64,000 bases of DNA from Candidatus Omnitrophota bacterium (lineage in GTDB: Bacteria; Omnitrophota; Gorgyraeia; Zapsychrales; Zapsychraceae): positions 12,163-76,162 of the forward strand of contig JADFYJ010000009.1 of NCBI GenBank assembly GCA_015233115.1, written 5' to 3'. Of the stretch, positions 2,319 through 50,763 are shown piece after piece. Both the position numbers and the translations under genes were made by a program. The notes beneath the pieces are model-generated. The model saw only the letters and a program-made list of their open reading frames with translations. It made no database searches and was not told the origin of the DNA. Position 1 is the first letter of the stretch. Every line of letters begins with the position of its first letter.

Positions 2319-2333
2319 TTTAAAAAGGAATTT

Positions 2334-3602: not shown

Positions 3603-3626
3603 AGTCAGAAGGTCAGAAGTCAGAAT
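3603..3626 (+). repeat. Heptamer tandem array GTCAGAA x3 after the M16 peptidase gene
   Basis: AGTCAGAAGGTCAGAAGTCAGAA. Confidence 0.6.
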
Positions 3627-3762
3627 ACAGCGATTTTTGTAATCTTTTATGTTTGTTTTATTTTCTGATATTTTTTGTCAATTTTTATGCTTTTCCAAGT
3701 CGCCTTGCCATTTAAATATTCATCGTATATATTTGTATTAATTTATTAATACATATAGAACT

Positions 3763-6700: not shown

Positions 6701-8043
6701 TGCAGCCTACAGTTTTTGATTTGAAAAAAATTATTCCAACTGAATTACATGACAAAAAAGTTCGGATTATATTAATGGCGGATAATACCGGTACGCTCAT
6801 GGATAAATACGATCGTCCCATGGATGATAGAATTGCGGAGGGATTGCGCGCCTTAGTTGATAATACGGATAATATAATTGTGGTTAATTCCGGTGACCCT
6901 AAGGCGGCTATCGAACATGCGCATCGCAGTGTTTTGCTAGGGGCCAAGAAAGGCGCTCATCTACAATATCCTCTGACCTGGGAAGGCGGAACTTCAATCG
7001 GAACGTTTAATGATGATTTGAAATTAGAAATAACTGATAAAATTCCTGATTGGAAGGAACCATTACGGCATGAATTAATCTCCAATCTCGCCAAGATTTT
7101 TTATGACCAGGTTGAAAAGTTACTGAATGAAGGGAAGCTGACCGAGAGGATTCCAGGATTGACGCTGGATAAATTGGAAAAGGACCGGGAGCGTGCCAAA
7201 ACGGTTATTGATAATAAATATCTTTCCGGTAAAGGGAGCATTGTTTCTCCGGGTGATGAAAAAAATGTGGCAGTTTATTTATTGCCTGAATTTTTCGGGA
7301 AAGGCGGATATATATACGACTCTGGAGCCAAAGTGGCCCTAGATGTTGTTGATATGCTTGATAAAACCAAATTTTTGACACTGAAACATTTCAAAGATAT
7401 TGAATTGAAGGCCTTTTGCATGGTCGGGAGTTTAAAGAATACAACCGGCCCGATAAAAGTTTACGCGGGAAAAAATTTTTTAGATATCTCCGCCGTGACG
7501 AAAGCAGATTCGGTTAGAAAAATTATATATAATTCTGATATACAGAAAAATAGTAACGAATTCGTTACCCTTTATGTTGTAATGGGTGATTCTGGTAATG
7601 ATATCCCGACGATAAATTCAGAAATGGGATATCAAAAAAGTAATGGTTATAACCTTTCATTCTTTTTGTCCCATAGCCCTGAGTATGCCGGTGATCTTAA
7701 TCAAAATGTTTTTATTACAGAAAGCGAGCATGTTAACGCTGCCATTCAAGTTTTGGAGTGGCTAAATACTTTTAGCGGTAAAACAATTGCTGAAAGTGGG
7801 CCATTCAATGCTCTCACTTGGCAAACGTCTTCATCAGACGCGGCGATGACCGTAAAGGCTGTAAACGGAGGGATTGACTTAAACTCTGTTAATAAAATTC
7901 TCCATACCCAAAATACAGAAGATGCGATTCGGTTTCATGTTGATCCGGCTATGCGGCAATATTGGCATGATTCGTCTGGGTTTGTGCCGGTTATCATAAA
8001 CATTTTTCTCCTGAGTAATCTTAGGAAATTTTTGGAGATATAG
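3763..8043 (+). CDS. Giant secreted multidomain protein (1426 aa). Shared novel N-terminal module, a histidine-kinase core (H-box plus HATPase_c) and a long C-terminal region.
   Basis: Signal-peptide-like N-terminus. N-terminal about 350 aa are paralogous to the next gene (YPDKPFRFDFII, WVNLSP, TEMGRDLLAQDY, EKEVNEG, KEEYDP). VKHEIDNLL H-box. N/G1/F/G2 boxes (LLKNAKEAM, VSDVGPGIP, GNGFGLAI) around nt 5650-5990. Two in-frame repeat-element inserts at 4287-4386 and 4548-4650. Confidence 0.75.
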   Translation: MMNNRIRQKFISGLMVIFFTIGSIVPSYGQAFISQAGIMPSTPVTLSPTFNLPLLTGIKVYPDKPFRFDFIISRGAGNNDPERLTGVEGLQLKKESETLIKYFLASLTVPEKDLWVNLSPQEKSRIITKEFGETEMGRDLLAQDYILKQLTASLMSPDGEVGREFWDAVYLKIYENRRENIEDRQATKNKTTLSVASNLSSPVYHLSSGNLEVPTNILSKVWIIPEKAVILEKPPNSDQPNATAYIAEAKLKVMMEDDYFIEKRRENLEDRQTTKNKTASVGSNLSSSVYPLSSLIKKIIIPVLEKEVNEGKNFAQLRQVYHSLILAAWYKRKIKESLLSSIYVDKKKIQGINIIDPAMAEKIWTEYVETFKKGVFNFIKEEYDPVKQTIAPRKYFSGGLTMAMDAALLVRPLETNQTMLPLENLRREMVIETNFESVNQAQPTTDHAMVEELESLRQVKHEIDNLLTGWEGYWQILEQGKIIEREDGLTMAINARIEKINEFSLNIKYEVFNLSKSPDLNSADTQQCLTHLKEFLRETDYLSQEISVLVKIMALKNPALEQNKYFNDFSRLLESMNYAIHKLIAGDYDFERLEPALVDLNYVLHRDVNLIRSDAGIRVIENYAPDIKLIPLDEMKFFHVFMNLLKNAKEAMMSKGEITISTEKESNFVNIIVSDVGPGIPEEILPQVFDSGFTYEKINGNGFGLAICKKIVEAHGGTITVENIPGPSGSPAGARFIIRLPANVDAAMITSEAGLSPAHTTQLNMYPVTAGSLIENNPHKYIFVVNHNMGSERRGQVIRNVYRTMLNIFGNDNRLFPTPFWWMGWGGKKKALVIFQKLVTELVSNSHHAKDRDGNYEDVFFQLTTQNVAHQKYLSLEVWNNYMGIQNIPWAVKRQNTTGDTPGMGLPFIIDFLVYSFGGQVSIESEGVGYRFSSKRKVWGKDPNAISSKFSSTVNRGAKISILIPFALIDSAMINTEKVLQPTVFDLKKIIPTELHDKKVRIILMADNTGTLMDKYDRPMDDRIAEGLRALVDNTDNIIVVNSGDPKAAIEHAHRSVLLGAKKGAHLQYPLTWEGGTSIGTFNDDLKLEITDKIPDWKEPLRHELISNLAKIFYDQVEKLLNEGKLTERIPGLTLDKLEKDRERAKTVIDNKYLSGKGSIVSPGDEKNVAVYLLPEFFGKGGYIYDSGAKVALDVVDMLDKTKFLTLKHFKDIELKAFCMVGSLKNTTGPIKVYAGKNFLDISAVTKADSVRKIIYNSDIQKNSNEFVTLYVVMGDSGNDIPTINSEMGYQKSNGYNLSFFLSHSPEYAGDLNQNVFITESEHVNAAIQVLEWLNTFSGKTIAESGPFNALTWQTSSSDAAMTVKAVNGGIDLNSVNKILHTQNTEDAIRFHVDPAMRQYWHDSSGFVPVIINIFLLSNLRKFLEI

Positions 8044-11000
8044 ATGTTTCAAACACTTCATAAAAATTTTTGGAGGATGAGAGCTTTTTGCTCCATTTTT
8101 ACAGGTGTTATTTCGCTTGTTTTTTGTGTGCCTTTAGGGTATAGCCAGATGATTTCCGGAACTGCGGCGCTATATTCTAATAACGCATCAGGACTGACAG
8201 CGTCTTATGCTCCAACGATTGTGCGGGGAATTAATGTTTATCCGGATAATCCTTTAAAGTTTGACTTTATAATTGATAAAGGCCAATCTAAATTAGGCCC
8301 AACGGCCTTTGAACAAGAATCGCAGAAATTAATCCGTTATTTTTTAGCCTCTGTAACTATTCCCCAAAAAGACATGTGGGTCAATTTGTCTCCCACCGAA
8401 CCTGACCGGATTATTCCTCAAATATTCGGCCAGACTGAAATGGGGCGTGATCTTTTAACTCAAGATTATTTACTTAAACAGCTCACCGCGGCTTTATTAC
8501 GTCCTGACAGTGAAGTTGGAGCCAAGTTTTGGGATGCTGTGTATTCAAAAATTTATGAAGAAAGAAAAGACCGTTCATCAAACAATTTCGACATTCCTGC
8601 AGATATTCTAAGCAAAATTTGGATAGTGCCTGATACCGCTCAATTATCTGAGCATGACAAAGGTGTCGATATCGTTAACACGCATTTGAAAGTAATGACG
8701 GAAAATGAATATTTTAATGATCAGTCTTCTCCTGTCTACCCGTTATCTTCTTTAATCAAACAAATAATCCTTCCCGCGATTGAAAAAGAAGTGAATGAAG
8801 GTCAAACTTTTTCTAATTTGCGTCAAATTTATAACTCAATGATTTTAGCCAAATGGTATAAAGCACGACTTAAGCAAAGTTTATTGGGACAAGTTTATGC
8901 TAATAAAAATAAAATAAATGGTGTTCGCATTAAAGATCGAATACAGATCAATGATATTTATAATAAATATTTAGAGATATTTAAGCTGAGCGTTAATGAA
9001 ACCATAAAAGAAGAATATGACCCTGAAGCTGGAAAGATCGTAGCGCGGAAATATTTAAGCGGGGGGTATGCTGGACAAAATGCTGACTACGCGATGGTTG
9101 ATGAGACTGACCCTTCGAAGGAACAGCCTGCCATAGATCCTGTAAAAGTAACGGTTGAGTTGTTCGGTCAAATGAATCCGTCGTCGGATAACAGGCAGCT
9201 TCTTAAAGCGGCTGGACATCTATTGGATGCGGAACATGCTAGACTAGATCAGTCCAATTATTGGAAAGCTCGCTTAATGCAAATTTTAGATATATCTTTA
9301 CCTCCGAATTTTGATTGTGAATTGAACCATCCTAATGCGGTCAATATGTCGGATTCGGATATTTATGAAAAAATCAAAAGGTATGGGACATTCATTAAGA
9401 TTTTTATGGAAAAAATTCCATATTATAAATTAGTGGCGGTGATATTTACGAAAGATTGGCAATTGAAATTTATAGAAAAAAGTAATGATAATAATCTTGA
9501 TGAAACAACTTATTATTTTACTGATGACGGAAGATTAGAAACGGAAGTGGCGTCCGTTAAAGATATCGGTATTTTAGATTTTTTGCAATTAGACCCCCGG
9601 ATCTCGCAGTATTTAACTTCTTCGAATGTTAATCCCATGATTCATAATGGAAAAACTGTTTTATTGACTGGAGCAGGATATATCGGCTCTGCGATTATTA
9701 GTACGTATTTGCAATATGGCACTCAAGTTATTATTTACGATCGAAACCCTTATAAAAGTGAGTATTTATCTTTAGTTGCTAATCACAAAAATGTCATTAT
9801 TGTCAGAGGAGATTTAAATGACCCGGATCGGCTAAGATCGGAAGTCATGGATAAGTATCACATTGACCTGGTGGTGCATTTGGCAGGAGTCACTTCTCCT
9901 CGAGAATCTATGAATTATCCTGAAAAGTATTTTCATGAAAACATATTAGGAACAATGAATCTATTGCATGCGATGAGCAAATACCAAATTAAACATTTTA
10001 TTTTTGCTTCTACGGCTGATGTCTATGGCGGAAATGAAGAGATGTTCGATGAGCGGGATGAGACTTATCCGGGAAATCCTTATAGTGAAAGTAAGTGGCT
10101 CTTGGAGATAATGGCAGAATATTTTTCTAAACAATATGGATTTAATTATGTGGCCTTTAGGATTTTTAACGCGGCTGGGGCTTTTTTTGATAACCCTTTA
10201 CATAGCGATGACGGACAATATTTTGGGGAGATTAACCGGACATCATTATTGGCTCGGGCTATTGAGTCGCAGTTAAGGCCGCAGGAGGTGACATTAACTA
10301 TCATGGGAAAACCGGTGAGAGATTTTATTCATATTAAAGATATTGCCAATGCCTGTTTAAAAGCATCAGCATACTTATACGTTGGTGAGGAAAATTTAAC
10401 TTTGAATTTGGGCACAGGAAGAAAAACGAGTGTTCCCGATGTAATAGATATGCTTAAAAAAATTTTTATTGAAAATGGAAGAGTTTGGCATGAAATTACT
10501 CAAGGGCCAGCCGTAGCTGGATCAGTGCAGCAATCAACCGCGGATTTTTCAAAGGCGTTTAATAAAATAGGCTGGTGGCCTGAGTATTCACTGACCAGTA
10601 TTCTGCGCACAGCCGTGTTATTTCATTTTCAGCAATTTATACGGGGAGATCATCCAGTCAACGCGAATGAATCTGTTTCTGATAACATTCTACCCCAGCC
10701 GGAAATTTTTGCGAAAAAAGTTTATGATCAAGTTGGGAAAGACACCGAGATGGTGAATTCCTTTAAATTTGAAATTTTATTCCGTTTGTTGGTTGATGTA
10801 TTAACTGCTTTACCAGATAAAGATAGGCGCCGGAATGCACTTCTTAAAAACGCAAGTGATATTAAAGCTCAAACAGGAAATGCTATTGATGCCATTGCTG
10901 ACAAGAAGGCTGGACAAAGATTTTGGGAAAAGTTCGGAGAGTATATACTTTCCTATTGGGATTTGGATCCTATTTATCAGCAAATATTTCTCGAATTGAA

Positions 11001-11256
11001 TGCTCTTATGAAAAAAGAGAAAGGTTTCAATATTGATACGTTGAAATATTTTCCTAATTCGAAACAAGACGATAATGCTTTGTTAACAAAAGGCGGTATT
11101 GATTTTAATTCTGATCATGTTGTTTTGAGCGTTAATCAAGCTGACGGGAAATTTGATTTTAAAATTGATCCGGTTTTGATGGAACAATATCAGCATGTTG
11201 AAATTTTGCAAATTAAAATTCTCCAAATACTACCTATGAAGAATTTGACTGATTAA
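8044..11256 (+). CDS. Giant secreted multidomain protein (1070 aa). Same N-terminal module fused to an NAD-dependent epimerase/dehydratase (GalE-like) domain.
   Basis: ATG at 8044 directly follows the TAG of the upstream gene. N-terminal paralogy to 3763..8043. Rossmann motif LLTGAGYIGS and YSESK (YxxxK) catalytic motif around nt 9640-10600. Confidence 0.75.
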   Translation: MFQTLHKNFWRMRAFCSIFTGVISLVFCVPLGYSQMISGTAALYSNNASGLTASYAPTIVRGINVYPDNPLKFDFIIDKGQSKLGPTAFEQESQKLIRYFLASVTIPQKDMWVNLSPTEPDRIIPQIFGQTEMGRDLLTQDYLLKQLTAALLRPDSEVGAKFWDAVYSKIYEERKDRSSNNFDIPADILSKIWIVPDTAQLSEHDKGVDIVNTHLKVMTENEYFNDQSSPVYPLSSLIKQIILPAIEKEVNEGQTFSNLRQIYNSMILAKWYKARLKQSLLGQVYANKNKINGVRIKDRIQINDIYNKYLEIFKLSVNETIKEEYDPEAGKIVARKYLSGGYAGQNADYAMVDETDPSKEQPAIDPVKVTVELFGQMNPSSDNRQLLKAAGHLLDAEHARLDQSNYWKARLMQILDISLPPNFDCELNHPNAVNMSDSDIYEKIKRYGTFIKIFMEKIPYYKLVAVIFTKDWQLKFIEKSNDNNLDETTYYFTDDGRLETEVASVKDIGILDFLQLDPRISQYLTSSNVNPMIHNGKTVLLTGAGYIGSAIISTYLQYGTQVIIYDRNPYKSEYLSLVANHKNVIIVRGDLNDPDRLRSEVMDKYHIDLVVHLAGVTSPRESMNYPEKYFHENILGTMNLLHAMSKYQIKHFIFASTADVYGGNEEMFDERDETYPGNPYSESKWLLEIMAEYFSKQYGFNYVAFRIFNAAGAFFDNPLHSDDGQYFGEINRTSLLARAIESQLRPQEVTLTIMGKPVRDFIHIKDIANACLKASAYLYVGEENLTLNLGTGRKTSVPDVIDMLKKIFIENGRVWHEITQGPAVAGSVQQSTADFSKAFNKIGWWPEYSLTSILRTAVLFHFQQFIRGDHPVNANESVSDNILPQPEIFAKKVYDQVGKDTEMVNSFKFEILFRLLVDVLTALPDKDRRRNALLKNASDIKAQTGNAIDAIADKKAGQRFWEKFGEYILSYWDLDPIYQQIFLELNALMKKEKGFNIDTLKYFPNSKQDDNALLTKGGIDFNSDHVVLSVNQADGKFDFKIDPVLMEQYQHVEILQIKILQILPMKNLTD

Positions 11257-11346
11257 AATCATTAAAATCATATCACTTATGTTGACTTTTGTGGATGTAT
11301 CAGTTACAATCAAAAACAATTTTAAACTTATAACTAGGAGGTTGGC

Positions 11347-11517
11347 ATGGAGAAGTTGTCGTTCTATGATGTCAAATTAAAGAAGAAGTTTGATGCTGAT
11401 ACTTATGAAGTCCGTGAAAAGAACGGTCGTTTTTTTGCCGTTACAAAATCACCGGCCGGCGCACATGAATGCTGGAGAGTTTTGAGCAAGGATCAAGCGG
11501 CCAAACTTAAGAAATAA
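11347..11517 (+). CDS. Small hypothetical protein of 56 aa, not in the ORF track (below its length cut-off)
   Basis: Strong RBS AGGAGG 6 nt upstream of ATG 11347. Translation MEKLSFYDVKLKKKFDADTYEVREKNGRFFAVTKSPAGAHECWRVLSKDQAAKLKK. Confidence 0.5.
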   Translation: MEKLSFYDVKLKKKFDADTYEVREKNGRFFAVTKSPAGAHECWRVLSKDQAAKLKK

Positions 11518-11660
11518 ATTTTAATTATTTTGATCATTATTTTTTTAGAGAGGAAATTTGCACTATCGCACGGTCAACACCTTCTAAACCTATTGATTTT
11601 GTTAATAAAATAGCGCAGTTCGCAGCCGATAAAAAAGCGGAGAGCATTACGATCCTGGAA

Positions 11661-11951
11661 ATGAAGGATATCGTTAATTTCTGTGATTATTTTGTGATTT
11701 GCACGGGAAATACCGACCGTCATGTCAAGGCAATTGCTGACAATATTGAGGATGAATTGGCTAAGTCAGGAATGAAGATTTCACCTAAGCAACGTACGGG
11801 AAAGAATGATTGGGTTATCTTTGATATTGGTGATATTGTGGTGCATGTTTTTCAAAAAGATACTCGTGAATTTTATCAATTAGAGTATCTTTGGCGTGAC
11901 GCGAAGAAGATCGACTGGGTTGAAGTTATTCCTCCTAAAAAAACAAATTAA
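11661..11951 (+). CDS. rsfS: Ribosome silencing factor RsfS (Iojap family)
   Basis: DYFVICTGNTDRHVKAIAD...DWVIFDIGDIVVHVF...REFYQLEYLW matches the RsfS core. The frame stays open about 50 codons upstream (..KPIDFVNKIAQFAADKKAESITILE) without an ATG/GTG/TTG, so the true start is uncertain. Confidence 0.8.
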   Translation: MKDIVNFCDYFVICTGNTDRHVKAIADNIEDELAKSGMKISPKQRTGKNDWVIFDIGDIVVHVFQKDTREFYQLEYLWRDAKKIDWVEVIPPKKTN

Positions 11952-11954
11952 TAG

Positions 11955-12005
11955 ACCCATGGAACACCGCGCCGGTGGACTTTATCCACCGACGCGGTGT
12001 TTTTA
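11955..12005 (+). terminator. GC-rich palindrome (REP-B family) plus T-run; likely rsfS terminator
   Basis: GGAACACCGCGCCGGTGGAC-tttat-CCACCGACGCGGTGTTTTT. Confidence 0.55.
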
Positions 12006-12010
12006 ATCTT

Positions 12011-13684
12011 ATGTTCCAAGATATCCAACAAAAATTAGCCAGTATTATCAATGAGGTGTTGAAAAAAACAGCACCTGAAGGTATTGATTTGCCGTTAGTA
12101 GAATGGGAAATCCCGATTGAAAAAGAATTTGGGGATCTATCGACAACTATCGCCTTAAAAGCTGCTAAAATTTTTCGTAAACCTCCTGCCATTATCGCGC
12201 AAGATTTAATCACTAAGATTAATGACGCGTTAGTTCACTCGCCATTTAAAATTAAAATTGAAAAAATTGAAGTCAAGAGTCCTGGTTTTATTAATTTTTT
12301 CTTTAGCGCCCAGTATTTCCGTGATGTTTTGGAAAGTATTTTAACGGCGGGGAATGATTTTGGCCGTTTAGATTTTGGCCGGAATGAAAAACTTATGGTC
12401 GAATTTGTAAGCGCGAATCCGACTGGACCTTTAAGCGTGGCGCACGCGCGTCAGGCTGCTGTCGGCGACGCTTTGGTGAATATTTTATGTTATATTGGGT
12501 TCGACGCAAAAAAAGAATATTATGTGAATGACGGAGGGAACCAGATTCGTATTTTAGGCAATTCAGTCCGTTTACGCGCGTTTGAATTATTGGGCAGGCA
12601 GGTGGATTATCCTGAAGATTATTACCAAGGCGACTATATCCGCGATATGGCACAACTTTTCATGGATCAACGTTCGATAAAAACGCTTGAGGCGTTAGAT
12701 CAACTGAATGAAAAAGATTTTATGGATTTTGCCGGCGGTTATTTATTGGATGTGAACCGTAAAGAATTGGAAGATTTCGGTGTACAATATGATTGTTGGT
12801 CATTTGAATCTAAAGTGGCAGGCAAAGAAAATATTAAAAAAGTTTTGGATGAAATTGCGCAAAAAGGGCTGATTTATGAGAAGGACGGGGCTTTGTGGTT
12901 TAAGACCACAGATTTAGGCGATGATAAAGACCGGGTCGTCCGTAAGAGTGATGGAAGCTTTACTTATTTGGCCCCTGACATTGTTTACCATAAAAATAAA
13001 TTTGATCGCGGGTTTAGCCGCGTATTTGATATTTTAGGCCCGGATCACCATGGATATATTCCGCGTCTTAAGGCGGCAGCGCAGGCTTTGGGCCGTAACC
13101 GTGATGATGTGGAAGTTCTGATTGTCCAGCTGGCGACTATTATCCGCGATGGGCAAATATTATCCATGTCGACCCGCAAAGGGCAATATATTACTTTGCG
13201 CGAAGTTTTGGATGAAGTGGGCAAAGATGCCGCCCGGTATTTCTTTTTAATGCGTCATATTAAGGCGCAGTTGGAATTTGATCTGGAGGTGGCTAAAAAA
13301 CAGACTGCTGAAAACCCGGTTTATTATATTCAATATGGTCATGCCCGGGTTCATAGTATCAATGAAAAAGCAGCGGTTTCCGGAGTAGTCGCGAAGACAG
13401 CCGGTTTTCAATACCTAAACGAGGAAGAAGAGATAAATCTCATAAAGAAGATAAATGGTTTTTCATCCGCTTTGCTGGCTTGTTATAAACAGATGGATCC
13501 GTATCCTTTGGCGAGCTATTTGCTTGAATTGGCTACCGCGTTCCATAGATTTTATGATAAGCACCGCGTCATTACGGAGGATCTTCCTTTATCATCTGAG
13601 CGTCTGGCTTTGGCCAACGCGGCCCGGGTCACGCTGGCAAATGGGCTTAAGCTCATTGGAGTGACTGCGCCATCAAAAATGTGA
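12011..13684 (+). CDS. argS: Arginine--tRNA ligase
   Basis: Class I signature SANPTGPLSVAHAR. Typical ArgS length and C-terminal anticodon-binding region. Start moved to MFQDIQQ (12011), downstream of a palindromic terminator-like element. Confidence 0.9.
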   Translation: MFQDIQQKLASIINEVLKKTAPEGIDLPLVEWEIPIEKEFGDLSTTIALKAAKIFRKPPAIIAQDLITKINDALVHSPFKIKIEKIEVKSPGFINFFFSAQYFRDVLESILTAGNDFGRLDFGRNEKLMVEFVSANPTGPLSVAHARQAAVGDALVNILCYIGFDAKKEYYVNDGGNQIRILGNSVRLRAFELLGRQVDYPEDYYQGDYIRDMAQLFMDQRSIKTLEALDQLNEKDFMDFAGGYLLDVNRKELEDFGVQYDCWSFESKVAGKENIKKVLDEIAQKGLIYEKDGALWFKTTDLGDDKDRVVRKSDGSFTYLAPDIVYHKNKFDRGFSRVFDILGPDHHGYIPRLKAAAQALGRNRDDVEVLIVQLATIIRDGQILSMSTRKGQYITLREVLDEVGKDAARYFFLMRHIKAQLEFDLEVAKKQTAENPVYYIQYGHARVHSINEKAAVSGVVAKTAGFQYLNEEEEINLIKKINGFSSALLACYKQMDPYPLASYLLELATAFHRFYDKHRVITEDLPLSSERLALANAARVTLANGLKLIGVTAPSKM

Positions 13685-13727
13685 GCTCTTGCTTCCGCAA
13701 TTAAATTTTAATGAGCGGAAGGAATTT

Positions 13728-15419
13728 ATGGAAAAAATTTGGCATATTTTGCCTAGCCATCCTAAGCGTCAAGCTGAATTGGTTTCTGCACTTCATATCC
13801 ATCCGATTGTTGCCCAACTTTTAATTAATCGAGACATTCAAGAACCCGAGGCCGCAAAATTGTTTTTATCAGCGGAAATGGAAGGGTTGTTAGACCCGTT
13901 TACGATGAAAGGCATACCTGAAGCTGTAGATCGTCTTAAATTGGCGCGGGACCGCAAAGAAAAAGTGTTAATTTATGGCGATTATGATGTGGATGGTGTC
14001 ACAGCATCGGCCTTGCTCCATGATACGTTTCAGCAGTATGGCTTAAACGTGGATAATCATATTCCGCACCGCATGCTGCATGGTTATGGTCTAAACATGG
14101 AAATTGGGGAGATGGCGAAGAAGGATGGGGTATCCTTGATCGTAACTGTGGATTGCGGGATTAACGCGTGCGAGGCCGTGGACGTGGTCAATAGTTTTGG
14201 AATTGATGTCATTATAATTGATCATCACGAACCAGCCGAACAATTGCCTAAAGCCTTGGTTATTATTAATCCGAAACAAAAGGAATGCTCCTATCCTTTT
14301 AAAGATTTAGCCGGTGTCGGTTTGGCGGCCAAAATATCCCAGGCGCTGATTGGCCAGATCACTGATGAAGCTTTGGATTTTGCCGCGATCGGGACTGTGG
14401 CTGACATTGTACCGCTGTTAGGCGAGAACCGGATTATTGTGAAGAATGGCTTGAAGCGTTTGAATCAGACCAGAAATAAGGGGTTAAAAGCGCTTTTAGA
14501 GATTGCGAAAATTTTGGGGAAAGATATCAGGCCTTTTCATGTTGGTTTTATTTTGGGCCCGCGGATTAACGCGGCAGGGCGCATGGATTCAGCGCATGAT
14601 TCATTAGATTTGTTTTTAGCTCAGGACGATGAGAAAGCCCGCGGTTTTGCGGCTGAGTTGGAAAAACACAATACCATGCGTCAACTGATGCAAAAGGAAG
14701 TCATTGAAGAGGCTTTGGCGATTGTGGAGCAGGAAGTTAATTTTAACGAAGATAAAGTGATTGTGATATGCAAAGAAGGGTGGCACAAAGGCGTTTTGGG
14801 CATTGTTGCGTCCCGTATTACGGATAAATATTTTCGGCCGGCTGTGGTGATTTCAGTTGAGGACGGGGTGGGTACTGCATCAGCACGATCCATTGATGGT
14901 TTCCATTTGCACGATGCGCTGTTAGCATGTTCAGAACTCTTGGTGCGTTTTGGCGGGCATGAAGGGGCAGCTGGCTTAACGATCAAAGAAGAAAATATTG
15001 AATTGTTCCGAAAACAAATTAATCACATTGCGTGTAAAAATCTAGAGCAGAAAAAATTGGTGCCAACGATTCATATAGATTGTGAAGTGGCGCTGGCTGA
15101 CATTAATTTGGAATTAGCACATACCGTTGATACCATGGAACCCTTTGGCGAGGGGAATCCTGAACCAGTTTTTTGCGTTTTAGGCGTGACAGTCAAAAGC
15201 CGGCCTCAAGTAATGGGTAAAGAAACAATTAAGTTTTGGGTCAGTGATGACCATGCCGCGATTTCTGCCGTAGGTTTTGGAATGGGCCGTTTTGCTGAGA
15301 TAATTGATGTGGGTTCCAAAGTTGACCTGGCGTTTAATATTGGTATTGATGATTGGAATAAAGCCCCGGTTGCGCAGTTGAAGCTGAAGGATGTAAGATT
15401 GACATGTCAGAAAATTTAA
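13728..15419 (+). CDS. recJ: Single-stranded-DNA-specific exonuclease RecJ
   Basis: DHH motifs (GDYDVDGVTASALL, IIIDHHEP) and a DHHA1 region. AAGGA RBS before ATG 13728. The ORF-track start at 13689 is a TTG. Confidence 0.85.
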   Translation: MEKIWHILPSHPKRQAELVSALHIHPIVAQLLINRDIQEPEAAKLFLSAEMEGLLDPFTMKGIPEAVDRLKLARDRKEKVLIYGDYDVDGVTASALLHDTFQQYGLNVDNHIPHRMLHGYGLNMEIGEMAKKDGVSLIVTVDCGINACEAVDVVNSFGIDVIIIDHHEPAEQLPKALVIINPKQKECSYPFKDLAGVGLAAKISQALIGQITDEALDFAAIGTVADIVPLLGENRIIVKNGLKRLNQTRNKGLKALLEIAKILGKDIRPFHVGFILGPRINAAGRMDSAHDSLDLFLAQDDEKARGFAAELEKHNTMRQLMQKEVIEEALAIVEQEVNFNEDKVIVICKEGWHKGVLGIVASRITDKYFRPAVVISVEDGVGTASARSIDGFHLHDALLACSELLVRFGGHEGAAGLTIKEENIELFRKQINHIACKNLEQKKLVPTIHIDCEVALADINLELAHTVDTMEPFGEGNPEPVFCVLGVTVKSRPQVMGKETIKFWVSDDHAAISAVGFGMGRFAEIIDVGSKVDLAFNIGIDDWNKAPVAQLKLKDVRLTCQKI

Positions 15420-15421
15420 GA

Positions 15422-15775
15422 GTCACAAGGACACAAAGTCACAAGGTCACAAAGGGTAGTGAAGATTTGAAAAAAGGCGGATGGGATCACAAAAGATATG
15501 AAAATTATGTCATATGTTTGTGAATTATGCTAATAGGGATGATAGGCAATTTATCGTTTTAACTTTGAGTATTCAGATAATTGTTTTGATTTAAATTTAT
15601 TATTTATATTTTTTTTGTAACTTTGTGCTCGTGAGATTTTTTACATGTGTTATTAAATAAAAAAAAGACCATAAAATTTTTATGGTCTTTTTTATATCGT
15701 TTTTAATTTTTATAATATCGCTTTTTTTATCTTTATTACCCTTTGTGACCTTGTGACTTTGTGCCCTTGTGACCT
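15422..15775. repeat. Intergenic module: inverted arrays of GTCACAA heptamers flanking an AT-rich core with the bidirectional terminator
   Basis: Left AGTCACAAGGACACAAAGTCACAAGGTCACAAAGGG (15422-15458). Right CCCTTTGTGACCTTGTGACTTTGTGCCCTTGTGACC (15740-15775), its reverse complement. Confidence 0.7.
15657..15694. terminator. Bidirectional intrinsic terminator between the convergent genes recJ and rpmB
   Basis: AAAAAAAAGACCATAAAATTTTTATGGTCTTTTTTAT: perfect 10-bp stem flanked by A-run and T-run. Confidence 0.75.
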
Positions 15776-15779
15776 TTTA

Positions 15780-16007
15780 TTAGGCTTTCGTAATTTTTCC
15801 TGCCTGGATACAGCTGGTGCAGACATCGGCGCGCTTGATTGTTCCGTCTAAATTGATTTTGATTTTTTGTAAATTGGGTTCAAACGTGCGGAAAGTTTTT
15901 CCGACGACCTTAGAACCGGCGCCGCCTTTATTTTTTGCCATACCGCGTCTTTTATATTTTGCGCCCGGTTGGGTGGTTTTTTGACAAATAATACATTCTT
16001 TAGCCAT
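15780..16007 (-). CDS. rpmB: 50S ribosomal protein L28
   Basis: 75 aa, C-x-x-C...C-x-x-C zinc-ribbon form. PNLQKIKIN motif is typical of bL28. Confidence 0.8.
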   Translation of the reverse strand: MAKECIICQKTTQPGAKYKRRGMAKNKGGAGSKVVGKTFRTFEPNLQKIKINLDGTIKRADVCTSCIQAGKITKA

Positions 16008-18228: not shown

Positions 18229-18819
18229 ATGAAAGTTGTTAAGTTTTTCATTGCGCTTTTTGTGGGAATTTTGGGGGTAACCAGCGCTGCGTTGGCATTT
18301 GAAAAACGCTTAGCTGCTCCGGCGGATATTCTGCGCCTTAAAAGTGATTTAGTTCAGCAAGTTATTAAGGCCGATGTGGTTCGCATGAAAGATATCCGCG
18401 CCGTATATGGGGATCCGGCTACGATTACAGAGACGGGGAGGCGAATTGTTTTTGATTATAATGACCTTTTTTTGGAATTTGAAAAACAAGTTTTATTTAG
18501 AAAATGGGGTCACGATTTTTCTCAGCCTCAGGCCTGGAGCGCGAATGTTAAAAAAGCCAGAACAGCTATTGAAGGCGGACAAATAACGGGAACTGAATAT
18601 ACTTTGGATCGTTTATACAAAGATTATAAAGATCCAACATTTAAAGTTGAAACTTCCGGCGATGGTGAGCTGTCATATTATTATTATGGAGAAATGAAAT
18701 TAACTTTTGAAAATGTCTATGTTTTGAAATCCTGGAAAGGCAAAAAATTAGAAGCTGTTTATAACACTGGCGTGTTGCAAGCCGTTCCAGAACCAATTCC
18801 TGTTCCTGCGCCTAAATAG
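18229..18819 (+). CDS. Secreted hypothetical protein
   Basis: Signal peptide MKVVKFFIALFVGILGVTSAALA. Stop codon abuts MITE copy J. Confidence 0.55.
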   Translation: MKVVKFFIALFVGILGVTSAALAFEKRLAAPADILRLKSDLVQQVIKADVVRMKDIRAVYGDPATITETGRRIVFDYNDLFLEFEKQVLFRKWGHDFSQPQAWSANVKKARTAIEGGQITGTEYTLDRLYKDYKDPTFKVETSGDGELSYYYYGEMKLTFENVYVLKSWKGKKLEAVYNTGVLQAVPEPIPVPAPK

Positions 18820-18911
18820 GTGTCTGCACTCGGCTGAGCATTGTCGCTCGGCATGTGAGCGGCAAAAAGCATTCTTTTTGAACTAATTGTTCTTGGCTGA
18901 GGTCTGACACC
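18819..18911 (+). mobile_element. MITE-family copy J (intergenic, 93 bp)
   Basis: TIRs GGTGTCTGCACTCGGCTGAG / TGGCTGAGGTCTGACACC. Confidence 0.6.
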
Positions 18912-19448: not shown

Positions 19449-19529
19449 TTATTTGGTTGTTGGTTTTTTGTTATTGGTTGCAGGAATAATCTGATTTTGT
19501 TTAAAAACTATCAACTCACAAATTTATTT

Positions 19530-19660
19530 GGTTTTGATAATTTGCTTTTCCCAAAAACTTAAGCCATCATTCATCAATTAAAATTTTTTTGCGATTACTA
19601 ATTTGTTTTTCCAAAAAACAAAAACTATCATCCATCAACTATCAAAATTAATATACTGAA
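19530..19660 (-). repeat. Two degenerate internal fragments of the MITE family (no TIRs) upstream of fba
   Basis: GATAATTTGCTTTTCCCAAAAAC and CTAATTTGTTTTTCCAAAAAACAAAAACTATCATCCATCAACTATC are reverse-complement-similar to the MITE core GATAGTTGATAGTTTATGGTTTTTGGTTTTTGGAAAAAACAAATTATC. Confidence 0.45.
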
Positions 19661-20684: not shown

Positions 20685-22697
20685 ATGTTGTCAAAAATAG
20701 CGTTAAAAATGGTGTCTGCTCTCGGCGCATTGCGTCGGGATCAGACACTTTTTTTAAAAATTTTATTTTTTGTTTTACTTTTTTCTTTACTCGCGGTTTT
20801 TTATTGCCCGCGTATTCAACTGCATACGGCGGATTTGGGCCGCCACATCAAAAATGGAGAAATTTTTTTAGCTCAGCATAAAATTATTTCCACTAATTTT
20901 TATTCATACACAGAGCCGGATTTCTCAGCTGTCAATCATCATTGGGCAGCAGGTGTGGCTTTTTTTTTAGTCTGGAAATACTTTGGATTTACTGGTTTGT
21001 CATTATTTTATATGGGAATTTTATTGGCTGCTTTCTCGATTATTTTTTTCTGTGCCGTTCGCCTGTCGAATTTTTGGATTGCTTTTTTTTATTCTGTATT
21101 GTGCTTGCCGTTATTAGTCAGCCGGCTGGAAATCCGCCCTGAAGGCTTTAGCTATTTATTTTTAGCGTTGATGATATGGTGTTTACTGTGTCTCAACCGG
21201 TATCTGTGCCAAGACCGGTTTCTGAACTCGACTGCGAATTCTCGCTCGACATCATTTTTTCAAACATTTCTTTTTATTTCTATTATTTTAATCCAAATTC
21301 TTTGGGTCAACTTTCATATATATTTTATTTTCGGTCCATTCTTAGTCGGCATGTGGTGCCTGAACCGGTGTCTGAACTCGACTGTAATTTTATCGAATGT
21401 TTATGGTTTGTGGTTTTTGTTTTTTGGAAAAAACAAATTATATCAACAACCAGCAACCAATAACCAACAACCACCAACCAACAATTTTATTTTACGAGAT
21501 CAGACACTAGGTATTTTGTTTATTGCTGTTATTTTGGCTTGCTTTATTAACCCCGCTGGAATCAAAGGGGCGTTAGAACCTTTTAATATTTTTAAAGAAT
21601 ACGGATATATGCTGGCTGAAAATCAATCTCCAATTTTTATGTTTAAAAGATTTCCCCAGGAGGGATCATATTTATATTTCATGATAATTTTTGGAGTGTC
21701 CGTATTAGTGTGGGGGGCATATACTTGGTGTCTGATCTCGGCTGAAAATTTATTTGCTGTTGATAGTTTTTGGTTTTTGGTTTTTGGAAAAAACAAATTA
21801 TTTCAGCAACCAGCAACCAGCAACCAACAACCAACTACCAACAAGTATATTTTACGAGATCTGACACCGTTTATTCTTGATAAGACACCAGATATTTTAT
21901 TTTTTATAATCTATTTTTTATTTTCTATTTTGGTCTGGAAAATGATTCGCGGAATGGTCCTTTGGGCACTAATCTCGATACCAATTTTAAGTTATATAAC
22001 CTGGTGTCTGATCTCGGCTGCGCATAGGCTTTTGCCATGTACTCGGCAGGAAGTTTTCGTTCCGGATCAACAGGTTTCTGGCCGAGATCTGACACCATTT
22101 TTTCAGTTTATTTTAATAATTCTAGGCATGATTGGCCTACTTTTTGGCCTAATCGGAAAAAACAACATTTACTCGCCTTATCAAAAAAATTATTTGTCTG
22201 CTATTGTCCCACAAACTCAACATTCTTTTTGGTGGTTTCCGAATGTTTTGCGCGAATTTAATAAATTACCAGGAACCATGCCCGGCGCAGAATCAGCTGC
22301 GAATTTTTTTAAACAAAATCATTTGCAGGGGCCTATATTTAACAACTATGATATTGGGGGATATTTGATTTTGAGTCTGTTTCCAGAAAAGGTTTTCGTT
22401 GATAACCGGCCTGAAGCGTACAGCGTTGATTTTTTTAAAAATACATATGTCCCGATGCAGGAAAATGACAATGAGTGGTTCGCGCAAGATCAGAAGTACC
22501 ATTTTAATGTCATTTTCTTTTATCGACATGATTTGACACCTTGGGGACAGTCTTTTTTAATCCGTCGTATACGGGATCCGCAATGGGCGCCAGTATTTGT
22601 GGATGCGTATACTTTGATCCTGGTCAAACGTGAAGGAAAAAATAAAGGAGTGATTGAAAAATATGAGTTACCTCAAGAAATTTTTCAAGTGTATTAA
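20685..22697 (+). CDS. Polytopic membrane protein (GT-C/ArnT-like fold suspected) carrying five in-frame MITE-family inserts
   Basis: Continuous 670-aa ORF. Many TM helices and a C-terminal soluble domain. MITE copies A-E are embedded in frame (see mobile_element entries). Confidence 0.6.
   Translation: MLSKIALKMVSALGALRRDQTLFLKILFFVLLFSLLAVFYCPRIQLHTADLGRHIKNGEIFLAQHKIISTNFYSYTEPDFSAVNHHWAAGVAFFLVWKYFGFTGLSLFYMGILLAAFSIIFFCAVRLSNFWIAFFYSVLCLPLLVSRLEIRPEGFSYLFLALMIWCLLCLNRYLCQDRFLNSTANSRSTSFFQTFLFISIILIQILWVNFHIYFIFGPFLVGMWCLNRCLNSTVILSNVYGLWFLFFGKNKLYQQPATNNQQPPTNNFILRDQTLGILFIAVILACFINPAGIKGALEPFNIFKEYGYMLAENQSPIFMFKRFPQEGSYLYFMIIFGVSVLVWGAYTWCLISAENLFAVDSFWFLVFGKNKLFQQPATSNQQPTTNKYILRDLTPFILDKTPDILFFIIYFLFSILVWKMIRGMVLWALISIPILSYITWCLISAAHRLLPCTRQEVFVPDQQVSGRDLTPFFQFILIILGMIGLLFGLIGKNNIYSPYQKNYLSAIVPQTQHSFWWFPNVLREFNKLPGTMPGAESAANFFKQNHLQGPIFNNYDIGGYLILSLFPEKVFVDNRPEAYSVDFFKNTYVPMQENDNEWFAQDQKYHFNVIFFYRHDLTPWGQSFLIRRIRDPQWAPVFVDAYTLILVKREGKNKGVIEKYELPQEIFQVY
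20712..20749 (+). mobile_element. MITE-family copy A (38-bp hairpin form, in-frame inside ORF 20685..22697)
   Basis: GGTGTCTGCTCTCGGCG-cattg-CGTCGGGATCAGACAC. Confidence 0.5.
21187..21260 (+). mobile_element. MITE-family copy B (degenerate fragment, in-frame)
   Basis: Shares ACCGGTTTCTGAACTCGACTG with copies C and G. No intact TIRs. Confidence 0.35.
21355..21507 (+). mobile_element. MITE-family copy C (long form, in-frame)
   Basis: GGTGTCTGAACTCGACTG ... GGTTTTTGTTTTTTGGAAAAAAC ... (CAACCA)n ... TTTTACGAGATCAGACAC. Confidence 0.65.
21727..21868 (+). mobile_element. MITE-family copy D (long form, in-frame)
   Basis: GGTGTCTGATCTCGGCTG ... TTTTACGAGATCTGACACC. Confidence 0.7.
22004..22097 (+). 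mobile_element. MITE-family copy E (94 bp with a different core, in-frame)
   Basis: Perfect 19-bp TIRs GGTGTCTGATCTCGGCTG / GGCCGAGATCTGACACC. Confidence 0.65.
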
Positions 22698-23589
22698 TCA
22701 TATACGGTGTCTGATCTCGACTGTAATTTCATCGAATGTTCATGGTTTGTGGTTTTGGGTTTTTGGAAAAAACCAATTATTTCAAAAACCAGCAACCAAT
22801 CACCAACAACCAACAACTAACAATTTTATTTTACGAGATCTGACACCGTTACTCGCTGCCTTTTTATTATTTGCCACACCATCGTTCGCTGTCGTTGATT
22901 TTACCGGAGATGTGAACGAATTTATTAAAAATAATCCTGATGGTCAAAAATTTGATTTCATGAGTCGTTATATCGAAACTTTGGGGTATTTGGAGTCGAA
23001 TGAAAAACTTTCAAAACAATTTATTGATGTGAATTTATTGACTGCTCCTGCTGATAAAGTTAAAACTTATTTGGACGCTTTAGTCAACGCGAATGTGAAT
23101 TTACGGGTGTCGCGTAATTACTTAAAACGTTACGGGGCAGTGAATAATGGTTTGATCCGAAAGGTTGTCCAGGATTTTCAATTGGCATGTGATGAGTTGA
23201 TAACTAATAATCAGGGGGAAAGATTATTAGTAGAAAAAATTTATAACGCACAAATGAACCATCAAAAAAGATCAGGGATGAATACAAAGGAATTTTCTTC
23301 GCGCATTGAACAATTAACTGAACAACGACGAGGGACATCAACGAAAATACTGCAAACTTCTATGTGGGCCAGTAAAGTGTTGATCAGTAACAAAGTTGAT
23401 AAATTTGGCAGTTTGTACATGCTTGGGATATCCGCTGATCAACGGAAAGAATTGCTAGAACAGTTATCAAAATATAAAGGTAAAGAATATCGGGGAGAAT
23501 TGCGTCCTGGGCAGTCTTTTTTGCAAGCTAGTATAGCCGCTATCGCTGCGATCCTAGAAGATGAAAGCTGGGGAAATTTAACTAATTGA
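22654..23589 (+). CDS. Secreted hypothetical protein. The N-terminus is encoded by MITE copy F.
   Basis: The ORF passes through the MITE, then a signal-peptide-like LLAAFLLFATPSFA. No canonical start codon downstream of the MITE before the signal peptide. Confidence 0.5.
   Translation: MKNMSYLKKFFKCINHIRCLISTVISSNVHGLWFWVFGKNQLFQKPATNHQQPTTNNFILRDLTPLLAAFLLFATPSFAVVDFTGDVNEFIKNNPDGQKFDFMSRYIETLGYLESNEKLSKQFIDVNLLTAPADKVKTYLDALVNANVNLRVSRNYLKRYGAVNNGLIRKVVQDFQLACDELITNNQGERLLVEKIYNAQMNHQKRSGMNTKEFSSRIEQLTEQRRGTSTKILQTSMWASKVLISNKVDKFGSLYMLGISADQRKELLEQLSKYKGKEYRGELRPGQSFLQASIAAIAAILEDESWGNLTN
22707..22847 (+). mobile_element. MITE-family copy F (long form, forms the 5' end of ORF 22654..23589)
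   Basis: GGTGTCTGATCTCGACTG ... TTTTACGAGATCTGACACC. Confidence 0.7.
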
Positions 23590-23617
23590 TTGACATGGTG
23601 TTAAGCCGGTTCTAATA
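23589..23617 (+). promoter_or_regulatory. Near-consensus sigma70-type promoter
   Basis: TTGACA (23589-23594), 17-bp spacer, TAATAT (23612-23617). Followed by AGGAGG and an ATG. Confidence 0.6.
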
Positions 23618-23637
23618 TGTTTCAGGAGGATATAAGA

Positions 23638-23811
23638 ATGCAAATTAAAGATAAGGTTGAGCTGTTAAAAGATCGTCAGGTCGTCGATGAAATTAAGCGG
23701 CATTTATGGATAGAAAGTGAGAAGGCGGGACGCGATATCGGTTTTGATTCAGCTGCCGCAGACTGGCTAGAAAAGTTTTCAAAAACTTGGATGGATTACT
23801 ATTGGAAATAA
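23638..23811 (+). CDS. Small hypothetical protein (57 aa) behind a consensus promoter
   Basis: TTGACA-N17-TAATAT at 23589-23617. AGGAGG RBS 7 nt before ATG 23638. Translation MQIKDKVELLKDRQVVDEIKRHLWIESEKAGRDIGFDSAAADWLEKFSKTWMDYYWK. Confidence 0.6.
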   Translation: MQIKDKVELLKDRQVVDEIKRHLWIESEKAGRDIGFDSAAADWLEKFSKTWMDYYWK

Positions 23812-23909
23812 TAAAAAAGGTGTTTGATTTCGACTAAAATAAATGGTGTATACCCTCGACAAAAATTGACGCCCGCCATCTGACAATTAATTATTTTATA
23901 GGAGAATAT

Positions 23910-25538: not shown

Positions 25539-25547
25539 AAGGCTATT

Positions 25548-26546: not shown

Positions 26547-26549
26547 TTA

Positions 26550-27518: not shown

Positions 27519-27652
27519 TCTCGGCTGCCCGTAGATTGATAGTTGATAGTTTATGGTTTTTGGTTTTTGGAAAAAACAAATTATCTCATCAACCAGCAGC
27601 CAACAACCATCAACTCTATTTTACGGGATCTGACACCATTTATTTGACACCA
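27510..27652 (+). mobile_element. MITE-family copy H (contains the prmA stop codon; intergenic)
   Basis: GGTGTCTGATCTCGGCTG ... TTTTACGGGATCTGACACC, then a partial duplicate ATTTATTTGACACCATTTATT. Confidence 0.7.
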
Positions 27653-27660
27653 TTTATTGG

Positions 27661-30254: not shown

Positions 30255-30454
30255 GCGATAGGCAATTAAAATTATTTTATTTATTTGTTATTTAAAATGG
30301 TTTTTTTGAAAAACGATTAATGCGCACGGTTAGGAGATCGTAAATAACATAATTATCGCTTTTTTATCATTTGTCTTTTATAATTTATTTTCAATCATTC
30401 GTTAGGTGCAGTTATACTTTTTTCGTTTTTTTGTAATCGTTTATGTGCTTTTTC

Positions 30455-30495
30455 GTAGGGGCGATCTCCTGATCGCCCGTTACAAAATTATCGCA
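30455..30495 (+). repeat. GC-rich hairpin repeat (REP-A family) upstream of thyA
   Basis: GTAGGGGCGATCTCCTGATCGCCCGTTACAAAATTATCG. 8-bp stem GGGCGATC/GATCGCCC. Confidence 0.7.
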
Positions 30496-30552
30496 TTTTA
30501 AATCAATCATTTTTTCCTATGGCCTATAGCCTATTTTTAAAAAAGGACTTTT

Positions 30553-39201: not shown

Positions 39202-39202
39202 A

Positions 39203-50752: not shown

Positions 50753-50763
50753 ATAAAGCATAT

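Follow-up and report, generated by a model that had tools for sequence, protein, structure and literature searches.

Tandem arrays of 7-8-mers and dispersed hairpin repeats in a compact Candidatus Omnitrophota genome

The recJ-rpmB spacer and the arrays of the window

In a 64,000-nt stretch of a Candidatus Omnitrophota genome (GCA_015233115.1, contig JADFYJ010000009.1, positions 12,163 to 76,162; hereafter the window), a first-pass annotation drew attention to positions 15422-15775, between the genes recJ and rpmB, as an inverted pair of tandem heptamer arrays. The gene recJ occupies 13689-15419 of the forward strand (stop codon 15417-15419); its product has the Pfam domains DHH, DHHA1 and RecJ_OB and matches NCBI protein MBF0479046.1, encoded on a 94-kb Ca. 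Omnitrophica contig, at 100% identity. The convergent gene rpmB (15780-16004, reverse strand) encodes ribosomal protein L28, as judged from its translation, the Pfam domain Ribosomal_L28 and an 86% identical ortholog at locus L001 of the closest comparison genome. We found that the flagged region is not a single hairpin but two copies of one module of about 60 nt, in which a (GTCACAA)n array is followed by a tail, AAAGGGTAG..AAAGCGAT. One copy begins 1 nt past the recJ stop and the other 3 nt past the rpmB stop. Inverted arrays do exist here, as annotated, but they are two independent copies and not one palindrome: one module is set after each stop codon, in the sense orientation for each gene.

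The module was named family A. Copy 1 (15421-15479, forward strand) has about four GTCACAA(G/A) units at 15421-15454 and the tail AAAGGGTAGTGAAGAT..AAAAAAGGCG; this recJ-side array is spelled GTCACAAG GACACAAA GTCACAAG GTCACAAA, then GGGTAGTGAAGAT..AAAAAAGGCG. Copy 2 (15717-15776, reverse strand, in the sense of rpmB) has its array at 15743-15776 and the tail ..AAAGGGTAATAAAGATAAAAAAAGCGAT, and reads GGTCACAAGGGCACAAAGTCACAAGGTCACAAAGGGTAATAAAGATAAAAAAAGCGAT on the minus strand. Self-BLAST gave 88% identity over 58 nt between copy 1 and the inverted copy 2, 82-89% between copy 1 and two further copies at 58015 and 60183, and 92% over 52 nt between copy 2 and the copy at 60183. Of these, copy 3 (58009-58078, forward strand; array 58009-58044, then AAAGGGTAG..AAAGCGATTGGTGA) follows the stop of an ech hydrogenase membrane-subunit gene (57138-57986), and copy 4 (60182-60240, forward strand; array 60182-60211) lies in the spacer between echE and a ferredoxin gene. 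Folding indicated that a family A module alone is unstructured (z = -0.6 for copy 1; about 0 for the modules). After copy 3, a pyrimidine-rich (TTTTCAC)n array (58129-58167, forward strand) reaches the start of the ech gene that follows and shows no complementarity to copy 3 (duplex z = +2.4).

The two arms of the flagged region are separated by 180 nt of AT-rich sequence plus a terminator hairpin. The AT-rich part (15480-15660) had no self-BLAST match within the window and no Rfam match, and it has no counterpart in the relative described next. The bidirectional terminator that had been annotated between the arrays was found at 15661-15693 (AAAAAAGACCAT..ATGGTCTTTTTT): a stem with flanking A and T runs between convergent genes, matching the intrinsic terminator pattern on both strands. 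In JADFYE (GCA_015233195.1, isolate nDJH6bin14; loci L001 and L114), which was the closest genome compared (RecJ 82% and EchE 87% identical), the recJ-rpmB spacer is array-free and only 73 nt long, compared with 360 nt in the window, and contains the same GACCAT/ATGGTC hairpin. Because the array-free spacer keeps this hairpin, the terminator is ancestral and the two family A modules are later additions to its flanks. A promoter reading of the arrays was rejected, as their hexamers match the sigma-70 consensus poorly (judged by inspection only); a good TTGACA-16-TATACT promoter is located in the conserved rpmB-pepF spacer.

Tandem Repeats Finder detected 37 merged arrays of period 7 or 8 in the window, whereas 30 second-order Markov simulations averaged 5.2 and never exceeded 9. 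Periods of 7 (27 rows) and 8 (12 rows) stand out as a sharp peak in the histogram, and at least eight distinct, unrelated units were present. Every array listed in the first-pass annotation, which had described recurrent arrays of different units, was recovered, either exactly where it had been placed or 1-3 nt away. For the 19 intergenic arrays outside families B and C (described below), the summed normalised distance to the nearest gene was 2.83, against 9.5 ± 1.26 when placement was random, a value so low that it was not reached once in 200,000 simulations. Post-stop arrays were purine-rich in the transcript sense in 9 of 11 cases, and pre-start arrays were pyrimidine-rich and G-poor in all eight.

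The claim that many arrays share a tail held in part. The form AAAGCGATTGGTGA was exact at 58065 and 60227; a variant, AAAGCGATTGGTAA, was found at 41551 and another, AAAGCGATATTAT, in the rpmB copy, and the recJ copy has only a degenerate form, AAAAAAGGCGGATGGGA. The tail core AAARCGAT occurred 28 times against 12.5 expected, a count reached in none of 100 shuffles, and the longer motif AARCGATTGRT (one mismatch allowed) 24 times against 8.7. The AAARCGAT(TGG) tail is common to families A, D and E, with another arrangement in family C, and recurs every 12-15 nt within 41551-41591 and 46530-46563. This enrichment, spacing and sharing would fit the view that the arrays or tails are iteron-like double-stranded DNA sites for a nucleoid protein or a regulator, which would loop transcription units or insulate them; the first-pass annotation had likewise raised iteron-like protein sites for the arrays. 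We consider it very unlikely. The array units, which differ from family to family, vary too much to suit one protein; they have no linked gene, such as rep or par, that could encode a binding protein, and the same elements also occur inside genes and are missing from relatives. The AAARCGAT tail might nonetheless contain a protein site common to the modules. Plasmid or origin iterons, which are direct repeats of 17-22 bp, identical to one another and neighbouring a rep gene or origin, were similarly rejected, since the units are only 7-8 nt long and differ by locus and the window has no rep gene. We also noted that the motif CGAT recurs in every tail.

Dispersed families between and within genes

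Repeat families were defined by self-BLAST of the window, alignments and direct reading. At least seven dispersed families were found, and several of them are fold-back hairpins whose stems consist of inverted 7-8-mer arrays. Identity within families is 75-92% in self-BLAST and extends into the non-repetitive tails, terminal repeats and loops. The window contains four copies of family A, five of family B plus fragments, about nine of family C, three of family D, one arm pair of family E and three copies of family G. The elements are 45-320 nt long and contain no Pfam-recognisable open reading frame (ORF).

Family B, the largest family (21367-27637), was overlooked in the first-pass annotation, as was the in-frame architecture of elements within coding regions. 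It is a 141-nt hairpin with a 14-nt terminal inverted repeat (GGTGTCTGAnCTCG / CGAGATCnGACACC), inner arms of (GGTTTTT)n / (CAACCAA)n and an invariant loop. The five full copies are 85-91% identical, and two partial inverted fragments lie at 19450-19650. All five are on the forward strand. Copies B1 (21367-21507, 141 nt) and B2 (21727-21868, z = -5.2) are in frame within the gene 20685-22697; B3 (22706-22847) separates two genes that are 2 nt apart in JADFYE; B4 (26590-26731) lies in the same open frame near the start of prmA; and B5 (27510-27637, z = -5.0) is intergenic and two units shorter. Four shorter hairpins share the family B terminal repeat and have a different interior (18819-18911, forward strand; 20711-20755; 22003-22096; 47599-47644). 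Those at 18819, 22003 and 47599 fold with z of -4.0 to -5.7, and over families B and G plus these short hairpins the range is -2.6 to -5.7. The sequence GACACCATTTATT(T), which is the right hairpin end plus flank, is tandemly duplicated at 27631-27658 and 47638-47668, and GGTGCCTGAACC is likewise duplicated before B1; element ends seem to undergo such duplication readily.

One frame, WCL(I/N)S...RDLTP, is open through every family B and short-hairpin copy. The gene 20685-22697 encodes a membrane protein of 670 residues, whereas its two orthologs have 539 and 541 residues. Compared with both of them it has at least three insertions, which coincide with B1, B2 and the hairpin at 22003, and possibly one more, and its N-terminal extension coincides with the hairpin at 20711; the frame is open throughout. 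B-type copies also lie 8-13 codons past the starts of prmA (26550-27518) and of the ORF 47574-48746. Similarly, two family G hairpins (4278-4390 and 4538-4648, forward strand) are in frame within the gene 3763-8043, and the paralog 8044-11256 lacks 22 residues at each of the two sites. The in-frame elements add 15-60 residues each.

These two paralogs (1426 and 1070 residues, about 47% identical over the shared segment) have a histidine-kinase-type ATPase domain in one and an epimerase domain in the other. In both relatives, the genes flanking 3763-11256 are adjacent or split by one small gene, so the region resembles an insertion of about 7.5 kb. A (GTCAGAA)x3.3 array (3602-3625, forward strand), which overlaps the stop of an M16 peptidase gene, lies at the left edge of this putative insertion.

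The remaining families were mostly found in spacers. In family D, which reads (CCGAGTAA)n then AGAGCAAAAGCGATTGG and has one forward and two reverse copies, the forward arm (41507-41591, forward strand) is (AGTAACCG)x5 (5.2 units, 41507-41548), containing the stop of the upstream ORF, followed by three to four tail units of the form AAAGCGATTGGT / AAAGCGATTGAT / AAACGATCGGT. It pairs with the reverse arm (41715-41766, reverse strand; array 41730-41766), which lies 18 nt upstream of the hldD start. A second, solo reverse copy (42825-42899; array 42842-42899), 86.5% identical to 41715-41766, precedes the gene that follows hldD, 15 nt upstream of its start. The reverse CCGAGTAA arrays therefore bracket hldD, as had been annotated; the gene was confirmed by TIGR02197 (379 bits against a cut-off of 274.6).

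Family E consists of a forward arm (60944-60982), in which (TAGTATG)x3 (60944-60965) contains the hypA stop and is followed by GGTGAAAAACGATAGATGG, and a reverse arm (61170-61253, reverse strand), ..CGTTTTTTTGATTTTTG.. then (CATACTA)x8.6 (61194-61253), which ends 16 nt before the hypC start. AATAG flanks this fold-back at 60942 and 61256, which could be chance. An unnamed family is represented by a single pair: an (AGGCKAT)n arm (30239-30263, forward strand; unit AGGCTAT) overlapping the apbE stop, and a (CCTATRG)n arm (30516-30534, reverse strand; unit CCTATAG) 18 nt upstream of the thyA start. The third family G element (39189-39335, forward strand, z = -2.6) fills its spacer with an AGAAAAT-type arm, a loop and an ATCTTCT-type arm, and is 78% identical to 4271-4333; the AGAAAAT-type arrays lie at 39202-39242 and about 39300-39322.

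Family C is a hairpin that resembles REPs (repetitive extragenic palindromes), represented at 50617-50680 (forward strand; GGGGCGATCACCCGATCGCCC then TAACAAAATTRTCGYTTTT). Other copies are at 30440-30500, 44693-44765, 45345-45409, 46566-46881 (the three tandem units and a further copy), 50716-50752 (minus strand) and 57004-57066. The approximately nine copies, which include three tandem 89-nt units and one inverted pair (50617/50752), have a GC-rich 8-bp stem (GGGCGATC..GATCGCCC) located 20-110 nt past stop codons. The tandem at 46566-46851, between the genes for pyruvate kinase and a PadR-family regulator, is an 89-nt unit x3.2 (98% identity) made of the family C hairpin plus an AT-rich stretch, and its copy number could be an assembly estimate. 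The hairpin GGGCGATC-ACCC-GATCGCCC (30440-57066) contains near-copies of the cyanobacterial HIP1 octamer GCGATCGC.

Other features were noticed near these elements. A diversity-generating retroelement lies at 48834-51778. It comprises a target gene (48834-50507; FGE-sulfatase / C-type-lectin fold) whose variable region spans about 50379-50494, a bAvd-like gene (50764-51537) and a template repeat (about 51663-51778). Differences between variable region and template are nearly all at template adenines, and local GC content is higher (0.47); no reverse-transcriptase gene was recognised adjoining it. A HEPN / nucleotidyltransferase pair of the toxin-antitoxin type (52104-52792, minus strand) is among the few minus-strand units. 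Strand bias is extreme in the window, with about 47 of 51 called genes on the plus strand, and each 4-kb bin has a positive GC skew.

Fold-back spacers and comparison with relatives

For spacers of at least 90 nt, the first and last 70 nt were paired and compared with shuffled sequence. End-to-end complementarity was strongest for the flagged spacer 15420-15779 (z = -14.4), followed by 41512-41784 and 60947-61269 (both -7.7), 30255-30552 (-4.6), 50508-50763 (-3.4) and 46530-46861 (-3.3); spacers around solo copies showed none. Complementary arms of 20-70 nt are present in families D, E and G and in the pair at 30239, and solo family A modules have none. The whole family D spacer folds at -86.2 kcal/mol (z = -8.35) and that of family E at z = -6.4. 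In three whole-spacer folds, pairing spans arrays and tails over 30-70 nt per arm. The predicted RNA structures have the 5′ arm at the stop codon and the end of the 3′ arm 15-40 nt ahead of the start, so that the ribosome-binding site remains accessible. The earlier proposal that inverted arrays pair into long RNA stems, sequestering entire spacers, agrees with thermodynamic prediction for four co-directional spacers (z -3.4 to -8.4), but not for the flagged pair, whose arms would not normally be on one RNA because they lie at the 3′ ends of convergent genes with a terminator between them. Among the mismatches of fold-back arms, 19 were G.U, 16 A.C and 90 transversions. There is no excess of G.U; the pattern is as expected of a decaying DNA palindrome, and the arms bear no sign of selection for RNA pairing.

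Gene order around the elements, argS-recJ-rpmB-pepF and the ech operon, is conserved with relatives. In addition to JADFYE, we used L002 (RecJ 62% identical), L115, L116 and L117 (EchE 81-84%) and a fourth ech relative known from gene calls only (ENA ERZ1426829, EchE 82%). The first-pass annotation had suggested looking for presence/absence variation among related genomes, and copies were indeed missing at the same sites in relatives. The ech operon spacers of the window measure 178, 179, 73, 105 and 323 nt, and four of them carry a family C copy, family A plus the TTTTCAC array, family A, and the E fold-back. From echA through hypA, the genes of L115, L116, L117 and the fourth relative are no more than about 3 nt apart or overlap. 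The gap between hypA and hypC is 323 nt in the window, compared with 18 nt, 41 nt (from one set of gene calls) or an overlap in the four relatives and 17 nt in JADFYE. Arrays number 5.8 per 10 kb in the window, 2.3 and 7.5 at JADFYE loci L001 and L114, and 0-0.9 in more distant Omnitrophota; array density follows lineage. Apart from the repeats, the ERZ1426829 relative encodes a MamF/MmsF-family protein about 7 kb from its ech operon, which hints that the lineage includes magnetotactic Omnitrophota.

JADFYE has modules of its own. At the echE-to-ferredoxin site, (AGGTTAA)x4 is followed by AGTAAAAGATATT..AAATTGATTTGAG; this tail aligns with that of the window, whereas the unit differs. A second AGGTTAA array, followed by AGCGAAAT, stands after another gene, and both (AGGTTAA)x4 arrays with their A-rich tails (L114 1912-1941 and L001 15422-15451) lie just past a stop codon. 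The array unit is thus uniform within a genome and different between genomes (GGTCACAA in the window, AGGTTAA in JADFYE). Such agreement within a genome fits copy turnover, gene conversion or repeated insertion at a favoured site. Units of the TACTAAG/TACTAAC type are also found in JADFYE, just before a ribosome-binding site.

Could the arrays have been created by assembly or binning? The genome is metagenome-assembled, repeats are liable to mis-assembly, and the three 89-nt units at 46566-46851 could have a wrong copy number. However, the arrays are only 20-60 nt long, which is shorter than a sequencing read, and they occur in intact syntenic gene contexts. The in-frame copies keep long ORFs, and the independently assembled relative has homologous modules. 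The chance that the arrays are artefacts seems negligible.

Several of these results would also suit a function in the host. In such a case, the modules would be cis-acting RNA elements of untranslated regions, with arrays bound by a single-stranded-RNA-binding protein (7-nt footprint; cold-shock or S1-type) or by the ribosome, and paired arms would bring an upstream stop near the downstream ribosome-binding site, restoring translational coupling, or would make an RNase III site. The arrays adjoin stop codons and ribosome-binding sites, with the purine and pyrimidine bias reported above on the respective sides, and modules within an operon must be transcribed. The orientation of family A follows the gene in every case, including the minus-strand rpmB copy, the echE 3′ module is retained in two species, and the ribosome-binding site stays outside the predicted terminal stems (30-70 bp). 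For Beggiatoaceae (PMC4679880) and Nostoc (bioRxiv 10.1101/2022.06.06.494920), a role in translational regulation has been proposed for heptamer arrays just before starts. Nevertheless, close relatives run the same operons without any such element, and a single sequence-specific reader is unlikely for a unit that varies by locus. The stems have no wobble bias, the flagged inverted pair is divided by a terminator, the same elements occur within coding regions, and no Rfam match was obtained. We regard host-used elements as unlikely, though not to be dismissed lightly.

An alternative without any dispersal is that arrays and inverted arms arise on the spot, by error-prone slippage duplications copied across the spacer through intrastrand template switching. 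The unit differs from locus to locus, neither target-site duplications nor a transposase were found in the window, and the terminal-repeat ends are tandemly duplicated (GGTGCCTGAACC before B1, GACACCATTTATT twice, at 27631 and 47638). In one family G element, the 3′ arm matches coding sequence kept in the paralog, and the same 7-8-mer arrays and array-stem hairpins occur in an unrelated Bacteroidota-type contig. Local origin fails, however, to account for five 141-nt B copies that share terminal repeat, loop and spacer at 85-91% identity, and for four family A copies that share a non-repetitive tail. We give this origin a small chance. Slippage probably accounts for changes within the arrays, but not for the origin of the families.

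We therefore come to the interpretation that we find moderately probable and that is best supported by the data: the window contains several families of short, non-coding, non-autonomous repeats, similar to MITEs (miniature transposable elements with inverted repeats) or to Rickettsia palindromic elements, spread through a compact genome. An unusual MITE class had been among the first suggestions, and it is this suggestion that fared best, given the dispersed families, their absence from relatives' sites and the clean 14-bp terminal repeats of one family; we assign the elements to no named family. The families, their absence at orthologous sites, the in-frame copies and the predicted hairpins are what the analysis showed. 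The typical building block repeats a 7-8-nt unit three to nine times and then has an A-rich tail with AAARCGAT(TGG), and two such array-tail ends in inverted orientation make up a fold-back hairpin element. The elements would have been mobile, multiplying by copy-and-insert into genes packed nearly end to end. An insertion would then fill the whole gap, with one array end touching the stop codon and the opposite end the ribosome-binding site. The placement of arrays at gene edges would require no function, because ancestral gaps were near zero and the element is the whole spacer. Insertions within genes would survive only if in frame. After insertion, replication slippage may expand, contract and homogenise the arrays, so that the unit differs per family and locus; a change in unit number is exemplified by B5, which is two units short. 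Effects on the host, such as stems in operon mRNAs, would be by-products only.

Some results weigh against this interpretation. No target-site duplications were seen at the flanks of nine family B and short-hairpin copies, and there is no transposase or RAYT (REP-associated tyrosine transposase) gene among the proteins of the window. Among 241 million metagenome records, none matched the family A core GTCACAAGGTCACAAAGGGWAR. For the invariant loop of family B there were 39 metagenome matches, all of them chance hits in AT-rich unrelated DNA that lacked the terminal repeat and had no arrays beside the match. All six family A-type copies (four in the window, two in JADFYE) are sense-oriented just past a stop codon, which is unexpected under random insertion, and the module kept at the echE 3′ site in two species could mean usefulness. 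The 3′ arm of one family G element resembles native coding sequence kept in the paralog, and this native-looking arm hints that some inverted arms may arise on the spot. Other searches were also negative. The family B terminal-repeat pattern was absent from the 116 other loci scanned, a profile search with the peptide encoded by family B gave only two weak matches, both translated heptamer arrays of other organisms, and Rfam had no family at gathering score for the window.

The orientation and the echE site can also be read in another way, which we hold to be distinctly unlikely. The modules might be read by a trans-acting factor with a 7-8-nt footprint (an RNA-binding protein, the ribosome or a structure-recognising copying enzyme), with which the unit co-evolves genome-wide. 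This would explain why the unit at the echE site differs (GGTCACAA against AGGTTAA) while matching the other copies of its own genome in each case, why all six family A-type copies are sense and post-stop, and why fold-backs bring the stop near the ribosome-binding site. If true, it would be an undescribed way to keep translational coupling or mRNA processing in operons split by insertions.

Relation to known repeats and implications

With MITEs, the elements share small size (below about 600 bp), lack of coding capacity, multiple copies in the window, hairpin formation, a mostly intergenic location and presence or absence between related genomes. Dispersed copies are many within the 64-kb window (A 4, B 5, C about 9), and terminal inverted repeats are present, 14 bp in family B and 30-70 nt in fold-backs. 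They differ from MITEs in having no target-site duplication and, within the window, no visible parent insertion sequence. In addition, their stems consist of tandem 7-8-mers, and half-elements (array plus tail) stand solo in a fixed post-stop orientation.

Rickettsia palindromic elements, reportedly described by Ogata et al. in 2000, are said to be 100-150 nt long and to lie in frame within protein genes without destroying them, as well as between genes. By their anatomy, families B and G and the short terminal-repeat hairpins are alike to them, and they too are found in frame, a behaviour that typifies the Rickettsia elements. The differences are that the present elements belong to another phylum, have stems of heptamer arrays and often lie just past start codons.

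In foldback transposons of Drosophila and other eukaryotes, long inverted arms of short tandem repeats surround a variable middle; those elements are kilobase-sized with 10-31-bp units. The arm architecture is alike, but foldback transposons are eukaryotic and larger, and no relationship is implied.

Compared with REP sequences, bacterial interspersed mosaic elements and REPINs (REP doublets forming hairpins) of gamma-proteobacteria (PMC3116915), family C is similar as a GC-rich palindrome past stop codons with one REPIN-like inverted pair. REPs are imperfect GC-rich palindromes 20-40 nt long in genomes that have a RAYT gene. However, the window has no RAYT gene, and the families with heptamer arrays are AT-rich and far exceed REPs in length.

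Previous work (PMC4679880; bioRxiv 10.1101/2022.06.06.494920) described arrays of 2-9 tandem heptamers between genes, with no function known, many of which end a few nucleotides ahead of a start or overlap the stop of the preceding gene. Such arrays occur near starts in Beggiatoaceae, Cyanobacteria and some Bacteroidetes, and in 'Maribeggiatoa' a single TAACTGA unit accounts for the sets, of which one in 170 is inverted (PMC4679880). The arrays of the window resemble these TAACTGA repeats and the short tandemly repeated repetitive sequences in being head-to-tail heptamers between genes, near start and stop codons. In contrast to them, they comprise at least eight units within 64 kb, and many of them form pairs of inverted arms. 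The present arrays also carry a conserved tail, belong to longer dispersed elements and enter genes in frame. For Omnitrophota, the literature searched yielded no account of either heptamer arrays or small palindromic repeats.

The architecture is not unique to the genome of the window, because a Bacteroidota-type contig, L074 (JGI 3300032989, Ga0364859_10269, 289-13031), is also full of 7-8-mer arrays. It has 12 period-7/8 arrays per 10 kb, adjoining gene ends, among them ATGGAATG x36, ACCAGCA x14 and AGTTGGTG x12, and hairpin stems of the form (CTTTGCGN)3 / (NCGCAAAG)3.

Two further known systems were tried and rejected. An integron attC or cassette array does not apply, as the flanking genes are core genes in conserved order and no integrase is encoded in the window, and a CRISPR reading was ruled out on anatomy.

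For genome annotation, the elements matter in that gene callers extend ORFs through them and misplace start codons. For repeat biology, the genome of the window suggests a link between the tandem heptamers of cyanobacteria and giant sulfur bacteria and the in-frame palindromic elements of Rickettsia. Spacer-free relatives, a relative with few modules and a genome with many form a before-and-after series for the invasion of a compact genome by repeats. The same series also shows operons coping with hairpin spacers of 100-300 nt and proteins absorbing repeat-encoded peptides.

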